From assembly GCF_988243305.1 (NCBI RefSeq), contig NZ_OZ547136.1: 64,000 bases of DNA. One strand, written 5' to 3'. This document shows, one piece after another, positions 20,110-21,285 of this stretch. Position 1 is the stretch's first letter, and every line of letters starts with the position of its first letter. The notes under the pieces were generated by a model, which saw only the letters and a program-made list of their open reading frames with translations, was not told the DNA's origin and searched no databases. Made by a program: the position numbers and the translations under genes.

Positions 20110-20115
20110 TTTTCT

Positions 20116-20166
20116 CTGCAAAACCTCTGCAAAACCCCTCTGCAAAACTGGTCATCAAATGACCAG
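20116..20166. repeat. attL-proximal repeats: CTGCAAAAC x3 plus 19-bp palindrome
   Basis: CTGCAAAAC at 20116-24, 20127-35, 20140-48; palindrome CTGGTCAT-CAA-ATGACCAG at 20148-66 overlapping the integrase stop. Confidence 0.5.
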
Positions 20167-21285
20167 TTTTTTCCATTCCTTACCGCGTGCGTCGTTGTAA
20201 ATATCGGTCATTTTTTGATTCGAATGGCCTAGCAAAATTTTGGTATCAACCCCCTGCTCTCTGAACAATCGCTCTGATAAAGATCTCTGCTCATGGAAAG
20301 AGGGAGGGGTGCCATTAGCACGCCAGTTGTAATCCACAGAATCCCGGGCTTTTTTAAATGCAACGGTTAATGTTGCTGGCTTAACCATCCCGCCGCGCTT
20401 AGCTGTCCCTTTCGCGTGATGGTGGTGCAATAGCCACGGACTAAGAACGCAATCGCGGCAGGATGACACCACATCATCCAGGGTGAGATTTAATTTATCG
20501 CAACGCAGAGCCAGAGGGATGGCAATCCGGGTTCCTGTTTTTTGCTGTTCGACATGAAGATAACCATCCCGGATATCCGAAAATTGCATTTTGCAAATAT
20601 CTGAAAGGCGCTGGCCTGTCATCAGTGCCAGCAGCATACCGCGCTGTAAAAAGTAACCATCCTTTTCCGCTGCGTTATAAATCATCATCCACTCATCAAA
20701 AGTCAGTCGCTGTCTTGATATCCGCACCTGCGGTTTTTTTGCCGATTCTGCAGGGTTAAAGCCTGGCGGGACATCGCCCGTTTGCTGAGCTTCCCGGAAA
20801 ACATCGATCAGTACTTTCCTGAAAATTTGTCCCATTCTGTTATGTCCTCTGGCCTTGTACTCTTCCAGTACTGATACCACATCTTTTACGGTTATGGCAT
20901 CTAACGGTCTGGTGCCAAAACGTTCATCAAATACCCTGAGAGGGGCCGCTTTCTGTTTCAGCGTGTTGAGTTTGATCTCGCCGTTTTCATATCTTTCCTG
21001 TTGAATTTTTCTGTAATTATTCAGAAAAATGGTAACGGTTGATGAACCGCCGGTATCACTAATAATTTTCTCCTGCAGACTGAGCATTTGTTCCATTTGC
21101 TGCCGGGCAAGACGGCTGTTCGCTTCTGCTGCAATAGTTTCTGCCAGTTTCTGGTCAATACTGCCGAGACCGTGATTTTTGCCTGTTATGGGATGCCTGT
21201 AACGCCAGTAAACTTTGTTATTTCTTTTGTCAAAATACGGAGATAATCCCGGAACATCGGTTTTATATTTTCGCGGGCGCGCCAT
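20155..21285 (-). CDS. int: phage integrase (tyrosine recombinase)
   Basis: 376-aa ORF; C-terminal catalytic region with R...HxxR...Y (…LLGHSNQKMTDIYNDARG…). Confidence 0.93.
   Translation of the reverse strand: MARPRKYKTDVPGLSPYFDKRNNKVYWRYRHPITGKNHGLGSIDQKLAETIAAEANSRLARQQMEQMLSLQEKIISDTGGSSTVTIFLNNYRKIQQERYENGEIKLNTLKQKAAPLRVFDERFGTRPLDAITVKDVVSVLEEYKARGHNRMGQIFRKVLIDVFREAQQTGDVPPGFNPAESAKKPQVRISRQRLTFDEWMMIYNAAEKDGYFLQRGMLLALMTGQRLSDICKMQFSDIRDGYLHVEQQKTGTRIAIPLALRCDKLNLTLDDVVSSCRDCVLSPWLLHHHHAKGTAKRGGMVKPATLTVAFKKARDSVDYNWRANGTPPSFHEQRSLSERLFREQGVDTKILLGHSNQKMTDIYNDARGKEWKKLVI

Follow-up and report, generated by a model that had tools for sequence, protein, structure and literature searches.

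The stretch of DNA analysed here (the window, 64,000 nucleotides of contig NZ_OZ547136.1 in RefSeq assembly GCF_988243305.1) contains the left end of a prophage, where an integrase gene adjoins ompW, as an initial annotation made from the letters had recognized. That annotation also placed the matching attR outside the window, which is where it must lie, since the window ends within phage tail genes. Three genes make up the junction:

19471-20109, plus strand: ompW, an intact chimeric open reading frame of 212 aa at attL
20155-21285, minus strand: int (376 aa), a member of the lambda-Int family with an N-terminal arm-DNA-binding domain
21263-21511, minus strand: excisionase (82 aa; Pfam PF07825 Exc, E = 1e-7), annotated as excisionase or xisE in matching records

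Heterobivalent integrases with an arm-binding domain need arm-type sites. The integrase encoded here carries the Pfam domain Arm-DNA-bind_1 (PF09003, E = 7e-22, residues 2-71) and the catalytic domain PF00589 (E = 1e-16), and it matches the lambda Int structures 5j0n and 1z1b over its full length (E = 1e-55; aligned from residue 14). It is 50.5% identical to phage 21 Int and 49.6% identical to IntE of e14, and by this full-length identity of about 50% to both, against 36% to lambda Int, it belongs to the phage 21/e14 lineage.

Between the stop codons of ompW and int lie 45 bp, in agreement with the distance of 46 bp first given from the one stop to the other, and this spacer reads TTTT CTCTGCAAAAC CTCTGCAAAAC CC CTCTGCAAAAC TGGTCAT. 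The 9-mer CTGCAAAAC occurs exactly three times in the window, each time on the plus strand (20116-20124, 20127-20135, and 20140-20148), with start-to-start distances of 11 and 13 bp and all copies inside 33 bp; the triplicated motif and its 11-13 bp spacing had been seen from the outset. With 0.79 copies expected by chance in the whole 64-kb window, three within 33 bp are far beyond chance. The unit can be extended from CTGCAAAAC to CTCTGCAAAAC (11 nt), or to YCTCTGCAAAACY over 13 nt. At 20148-20166 stands a palindrome, CTGGTCAT-CAA-ATGACCAG (stem arms 20148-20155 and 20159-20166), which the initial annotation described as 19 bp long and overlapping the int 3' end. It is present, but the full inverted repeat is longer, a perfect 12+3+12 structure, AAAACTGGTCAT-CAA-ATGACCAGTTTT, at 20144-20170.

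The initial annotation placed the prophage junction downstream of ompW, offered the repeats as either the attL core or arm-type binding sites, and held that the core could not be defined here. We consider it very likely, from comparative sequence analysis, that the three repeats are the arm-type sites P'1-P'2-P'3, that the palindrome after them is a terminator, and that the core lies inside ompW.

The core could in fact be defined by comparison with the attB and attR of other genomes. In a three-way alignment of the attL of the window, the attB of K-12, and the attR of AR_0013, to which the attP-form junctions L028 and L045 were added, a block of 28 bp, CAGTGTGGTACATGGATATCGATACCAC, is identical in attL, attB, attR, and attP, both attP-form junctions having the same core. 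This block lies inside ompW and not downstream of it, and it divides the gene as follows:

19471-19990, plus strand: chromosomal part of ompW (nt 1-520), left of the core; near-identical to K-12 ompW except for a few SNPs, and annotated as ompW in matching genomes
19991-20018, no strand assigned: att common core CAGTGTGGTACATGGATATCGATACCAC, 28 bp, ompW nt 521-548
20019-20109, plus strand: phage-borne surrogate ompW 3' end, 91 bp, comprising the last 30 codons and the stop

To the right of the shared block, attL continues into diverged sequence and attR into K-12-like sequence, so that exchange took place in or left of the block and 20019-20109 is phage-borne. AR_0013 narrows the interval further. 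At core positions 20 and 26 its attL has C/C and its attR T/G, and the T/G form occurs naturally in bacteria, since the uninterrupted ompW of IAI39 has it (100% match). Exchange is therefore placed left of position 20, within 19991-20009 and so left of 20010. The C31 lysogen, which was used to narrow the left limit, shares the variant base between attL and attR, and no narrowing was gained from it. The core holds an inverted repeat, GTGGTA (19995-20000) and TACCAC (20013-20018), centred near 20006; the two halves are candidate core-type Int sites flanking the overlap, whose position would follow from their symmetry. An 8-mer, GGATATCG, occurs both in the core and close to the stop of ompW, at about chance level for 400 bp.

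The crossover therefore most likely lies about 110 bp upstream of the repeats, inside ompW. For the repeats to be the attL core where strands are exchanged, or to contain it, insertion would have to have taken place downstream of ompW, in which case their position between a bacterial stop codon and int is where a core would be expected. The triplet, however, is absent from attB (K-12) and from attR beside the ompW remnant, the sequence common to attL, attR, attB, and attP is the one at 19991-20018, and the triplet is kept in relatives that target other genes, unlike a core. We give this half of the earlier proposal a vanishingly small chance, whereas the other half, arm-type sites, has strong comparative support. 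Of the two comparisons suggested at the outset, the one with prophage-free DNA finds the sequence downstream of ompW in K-12 to be without the motif; the one with the other prophage end finds a direct repeat there, made of the ompW 3' segment and not of the spacer.

Compared with K-12, ompW of the window is nearly identical up to nt 548 and heavily diverged over nt 549-597. A near-identical block of 44 bp follows through the ompW stop, after which the sequence is unrelated to K-12. At the attR of AR_0013, a 126-bp OmpW pseudogene beside yciE has the K-12-type segment; the ompW remnants at attR are pseudogenes of 126-141 bp. Judged by these alignments, the surrogate rebuilds an intact gene with an altered OmpW C-terminus, and the ompW 3' end in lysogens is phage DNA. 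Different PPompW-type phages bring different variants of the OmpW tip.

When complete E. coli genomes were searched with 19800-20500, the whole ompW-int junction was matched in 1,714 of the 5,426; in the others, K-12 derivatives included, the match was limited to 19800-20111, at about 92.7%. The 'PPompW' prophages of STEC (LC567818-LC567841) match the int region at 100% identity, and in LC567822 the depositors annotate 91-211, which corresponds to 19991-20111 of the window (121 bp), as 'duplication due to insertion of PPompW'. For PPompW of STEC O145:H28 and other E. coli, the att duplication was defined by attP PCR in a study that also considered attB sites inside the PPompW prophage, and that makes no mention of arm-type sites (Nakamura et al. 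2021, PMC8112680). On the strength of these matches, the prophage of the window is a published PPompW-type element with a 121-bp imperfect duplication. PPompW_132418 shares the int-exo and terminase-to-tail segments with it and differs in the central region, so that the window prophage is a mosaic variant.

The three repeats can be assigned to arm-type positions as follows:

20114-20124, plus strand: candidate arm-type Int site P'1, CTCTGCAAAAC (9-mer 20116-20124), kept in variant phages and distant Int relatives and homologous to the phage 21 'P1P2P3' subsites
20125-20135, plus strand: candidate arm-type Int site P'2, CTCTGCAAAAC (9-mer 20127-20135), on the same basis
20138-20148, plus strand: candidate arm-type Int site P'3, CTCTGCAAAAC (9-mer 20140-20148), on the same basis

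The role rests on position, homology, and conservation. The repeats differ in sequence from the core-type GTGGTA...TACCAC and are arranged in tandem as direct repeats, spaced by about one helical turn; P'3 ends 6 bp from the int stop codon and has AAAAC in common with the stem of the hairpin. In variant phages whose ompW surrogates are heavily diverged, the CTGCAAAAC 9-mers are unchanged. Counting against the assignment, the variant Z0117EC0051 has an insertion of 15 bp between the core and the P' sites, which would shift their helical phase.

A fourth copy lies on the other side of the core. The complete 44,350-bp record of PPompW_132418 contains exactly four copies of CTGCAAAAC, three beside int and the fourth in the P arm (43755), which has the same orientation and lies 139.5 bp left of the core centre. 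AR_0013 shows the same 139.5 bp and C31 138.5 bp, even though their P arms have diverged, and in the attP-form junctions L028 and L045 the P-arm copy stands exactly 253 bp left of P'1. When four P arms are aligned, similarity begins at the copy and runs unbroken to the core, with none to the left of it, an abrupt start which suggests that the copy marks the attP boundary, like lambda P1. A perfect IHF consensus, WATCAANNNNTTR, is present in the P arm 18 bp right of the P1-like copy (AATCAATCAGTTA / AATCAAGCGGTTA); between the core and the P' sites, a search for the IHF consensus with up to one mismatch found none. Nor was a conserved inverted P2-like copy (up to two mismatches) found in the P arm across the phages compared. 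Two candidates were rejected: TTACAAAAC at L004:43867, which has two mismatches and is absent from AR_0013 and C31, and a degenerate ATCGCAAAAG in the P arm of AR_0013, which is not conserved in PPompW_132418.

Reciprocal searches show what the motif accompanies. Starting from the integrase, IMG/VR relatives that are 54-65% identical and have DNA beyond int carry three copies of CTGCAAAAC at 11/13 spacing at the int stop, and they adjoin unrelated host-gene ends, for example a ushA-like 3' end. Most IMG/VR relatives end exactly at the int stop, and the repeats were assessed in those that extend further; there, the sole exception is L072, where the motif is absent. Starting from the pattern, the exact triplet was matched 26 times in 100,044 species genomes, with 25 of the matches in Enterobacterales (Escherichia albertii, Serratia, Yersinia, Xenorhabdus, Providencia, Erwinia, Rahnella, Kluyvera, and others). 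An Int homologue of 48-99.7% identity ends 10-48 bp past the third repeat on the opposite strand in 21 of them, and the remaining five consist of four degraded copies (L105, L108, L111, and L117) and, in a Myxococcota MAG (L098), a longer, unrelated tandem array. The N-terminal domain fits the same picture: at similar divergence of the remaining protein (about 48-57%), most CTGCAAAAC-type integrases reach 61-69% identity to PPompW Int in this domain, against 46-54% for those with other motifs. Two Serratia integrases are exceptions, sharing the motif at only 49% N-domain identity. Together, these searches tie the motif to the integrase lineage and not to ompW.

Such conservation also bears on whether the repeats have a function at all. 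Short tandem repeats in an AT-rich spacer could be functionless products of replication slippage, and their copy number does vary, with five copies in L115 and L118. Yet integrases only 48-68% identical, from many genera and with unrelated flanks, keep both the 9-mers without a change and the 11/13 spacing; there is a separate copy in the P arm, and the homologous subsites of phage 21 are annotated as attP subsites. We regard slippage as extremely improbable. The repeats are almost certainly functional, and their conservation and placement identify them as the P' arm-type Int sites in an attP like that of phage 21 and not as a core.

The closest precedent is phage 21 (OL657228 / M61865), in which the triplet TCTTCCCCAAAAC TTTCCCCAAAAC C CTTCCCCAAAAC stands directly before the int stop and is annotated in the record as 'attP 3 subsites P1P2P3, consensus YYTTCCCCAAAA'. 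As in PPompW, a phage-borne surrogate 3' end that begins with the core is followed by three tandem 11-13-bp repeats ending in CAAAAC, and a fourth copy in the same orientation is found with an IHF consensus in the P arm. Phage 21 differs in its target, icd, in its motif (TTCCCCAAAAC, against CTCTGCAAAAC here), and in having its terminator between the surrogate end and the repeats, where here it follows them; its surrogate is also longer (165 bp, against 91 bp), and its P' sites are still farther from the core. That the phage 21 repeats are arm sites is taken here from the GenBank annotation and from work on the att sites of phage 21 and e14, reportedly that of Wang et al. (1997).

In e14, the cryptic prophage of K-12 with IntE and XisE that targets icd, an icd surrogate and a terminator are followed by GGTTATCAAAAT TTTATCAAAAAAAG TTATCAAAACC. 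Its motif is different (TTATCAAAA), and its int lies about 3 kb from the repeats, with ymfD, ymfE, and lit in between. When e14 integrates, its target gene has the 3' end replaced (PMC6379469). The Providencia phage PSTCR8lys and the potC-inserting phage 813R8 have comparable triplets and the same design. All the marks of a phage 21/e14-type module are found at the locus described here: a core within the target open reading frame, an in-frame phage-borne 3' end, and a 3' remnant at attR.

Lambda offers the more distant comparison. Its Int is likewise heterobivalent, with an arm-binding domain of the same family, and its P'1-P'2-P'3 sites are in tandem, at 10-bp spacing against 11/13 bp here, with P'3 abutting or overlapping the int stop. 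Lambda P1 is oriented like P'1-3, at a distance of 137.5 bp from the core centre, compared with 139.5 bp for the P-arm copy here. The lambda motif, C/AAGTCACTAT, is unlike CTCTGCAAAAC, and the P' cluster is 58-79 bp from the core centre in lambda and 113-138 bp here. The lambda P' arm, of about 80 bp, contains the IHF site H', and lambda also has an inverted P2; equivalents of H' and P2 were not found here. Lambda attB, finally, lies between genes (gal-bio); its core has 15 bp and no gene is replaced, whereas here the core is inside ompW and part of the gene is replaced. A text search of the literature returned nothing relevant on TTCCCCAAAA, on CTGCAAAAC, or on phage 21 arm-type sites and icd. 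The arm-site assignment and the clade-wide signature appear to be undescribed in the literature searched, but are a routine extension of the lambda/phage 21 paradigm.

The remaining feature of the junction is the inverted repeat that follows P'3:

20144-20172, no strand assigned: bidirectional intrinsic-terminator-like hairpin, from folding and comparative variants

Its RNA folds at -14.4 kcal/mol (z = -5.7), and none of 200 shuffles folds as well. The loop is CAA, and A and T runs flank both sides, with T6 at 20167-20172 on the plus strand and T4 on the minus strand. The hairpin lies 38 bp past the ompW stop. The int stop (complement of 20155-20157) falls at the junction of the 5' arm and the loop, and the T6 run encodes, on the opposite strand, two lysines of the Int C-terminus ...KKLVI*. 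No other terminator was found between the stop of the chimeric ompW and the repeats. A scan with a terminator consensus did not call the hairpin, a miss we attribute to extension of the stem into the A/T runs; on the plus strand, four of the six T's can be drawn into the stem. The palindrome is most likely a bidirectional intrinsic terminator, predicted from fold and variants, that would end the chimeric ompW mRNA on the plus strand and the int mRNA on the minus strand.

Palindromes are typical of dimeric DNA binders, and a perfect 12-bp inverted repeat that overlaps both the third repeat and the int stop could instead be a protein-binding site, whether a core-type Int site, a Xis site, or the operator of a dimeric regulator. 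Against this stands its distribution. In phage 21, e14, and most of the clade, the repeats are preceded by a terminator and there is no palindrome at the int stop, and within the Int clade the palindrome is confined to the ompW-targeting members, which are without the upstream terminator. The A and T runs on either side are those of a bidirectional terminator, and the palindrome is unlike the core GTGGTA/TACCAC. Variation among ompW-targeting relatives preserves pairing on the plus strand: in E9, an A>G change gives a G.U pair, Kluyvera L117 has two U.G pairs, and in L111 the hairpin CTGGTCG-TACTG-CGGCCAG shows a compensatory change from A-U to G-C and is kept even though int is absent. A protein-binding site is accordingly an unlikely explanation, and we favour the terminator.

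The position of the predicted terminator raises a related question about the repeats themselves. They follow the ompW stop, and the only terminator-like hairpin comes after them, so they are probably transcribed with ompW. They might act as RNA, as a protein- or sRNA-binding element in the chimeric ompW 3' UTR or, in the int 3' UTR, as GUUUUGCAG repeats (retroregulation). The repeats of phage 21, e14, and most CTGCAAAAC-type relatives, however, come after a host-gene terminator and thus fall outside the host mRNA; a copy in the same orientation at a fixed distance of about 139 bp beyond the core fits a DNA intasome and not an mRNA element; and the motif tracks the integrase and not the host gene. 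An RNA role for the repeats is very improbable on these grounds.

We propose that 19991-20172 is attL, the B-O-P' end of a lambdoid PPompW-type prophage whose attP is built like that of phage 21. As the sequence comparison shows, integration took place by tyrosine-recombinase exchange within the 28-bp core inside ompW, and the phage supplies its own last 91 bp of the gene, so that ompW stays intact with its C-terminal region changed. The small N-terminal domain of Int would bind the three CTCTGCAAAAC repeats and the fourth, P-arm copy about 139 bp across the core, while the same protomers would bind the core through their catalytic domains. Bending by IHF, at the consensus site by the P-arm copy, and Xis would bridge arms to core to form the integrative and excisive intasomes. 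The hairpin would replace the native ompW terminator, which would be left behind at attR.

The locus is a prophage end of an ordinary and well-understood type, and it raises no new question for site-specific recombination. We think it quite unlikely that the prophage does more than preserve ompW, by swapping the OmpW tip in a way that alters phage or colicin recognition and by letting ompW transcription across P'1-P'3 tune Int. In the topology of OmpW, the tip of the last beta-hairpin is an extracellular loop, and if the idea were true, a swapped tip could alter recognition by OmpW-dependent phages or colicin S4. In the same case, a terminator moved beyond the Int arm sites would let transcription from the ompW promoter cross P'1-P'3, and the level of ompW expression could tune Int binding and excision.

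The value of the finding lies chiefly in annotation, as the true attL core of this prophage family, which is very common in E. coli, lies inside ompW and not after it. The signature, three copies of CTGCAAAAC at 11/13-bp spacing abutting the int stop together with one copy about 250 bp away, marks the limits of attP for a whole clade of Enterobacterales integrases, and it could aid the delimiting of prophages and the design of attP/Int tools.

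Relative to PPompW_132418, a complete 44,350-bp record of the prophage type that resides in Escherichia coli ompW, the prophage in the window is a mosaic (24100-44550). The int-exo and terminase-to-tail segments match that record at ~95.5%, but the stretch responsible for immunity, replication, and lysis is mostly unrelated to it. The following are encoded in this divergent stretch:

25936-26709, minus strand: S24/HTH CI-like repressor
36001-37050: DNA methylase
38845-40713: NanS-p-like sialate O-acetylesterase

No stx-sized open reading frames were found in the prophage region 24100-44550.

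The candidate arm-type integrase sites, CTGCAAAAC, are not fixed in number. Five tandem copies, not three, precede int in Yersinia pekkanenii (L115) and Serratia sp. DD3 (L118), indicating that arm-site copy number is variable within the clade. A Myxococcota metagenome-assembled genome (L098, JANQET010000197.1) also matched the triplet pattern, in a longer array where CCTGCAAAACGC(G) units repeat in tandem; no integrase was found near this array, which appears to be a tandem repeat unrelated to the arm-site triplet. Two further matches, from Enterobacteriaceae RIT714 (L111) and Kluyvera georgiana (L117), carry an ompW-type surrogate end, the repeats, and the hairpin with no adjoining integrase: no int lies within 4.5 kb in the former, and int is 1.5 kb distant in the latter. 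Both resemble attL ends that decayed or were rearranged but retained the ompW terminator hairpin.

Within the attL end itself, the 8-mer GGATATCG occurs in the att core (20004-20011) and again just before the ompW stop codon (20095-20102), 91 bp apart. This recurrence is close to chance expectation in 400 bp, and thus the repetition is probably without meaning. At the attR of the E. coli lysogen C31 (L092:30108-30310), trpA directly follows the ompW remnant; the genes found beside ompW in both K-12 and AR_0013, namely yciE, yciF, and yciG, are absent. Upstream of ompW, the yciC-ompW interval holds a truncated YkgJ-family pseudogene in all strains examined (~19140-19230 in the window; L001:843-932), and a full-length gene of this family lies close to the right-hand end of the prophage in AR_0013 (L003:14907-15239). 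PPompW is reported to contain ykgJ-ecpE-like sequence, a secondary attB (PMC8112680).

The phage-borne ompW 3' end (20019-20109; L006, L007, L008, and L092:30108-30248 were compared) changes the encoded C-terminal region, which in translation reads TAKYKSGVTTVKDSVRL in the window versus TANYKLGGAQQHDSVRL in K-12. Other PPompW-type phages carry differing versions of this end, one of them with 5 extra residues, and the same stretch is also variable among natural ompW alleles. Going by OmpW topology, we take the altered stretch to be the last extracellular loop; lysogeny may therefore alter a surface epitope or receptor through the phage-borne OmpW C-terminus.
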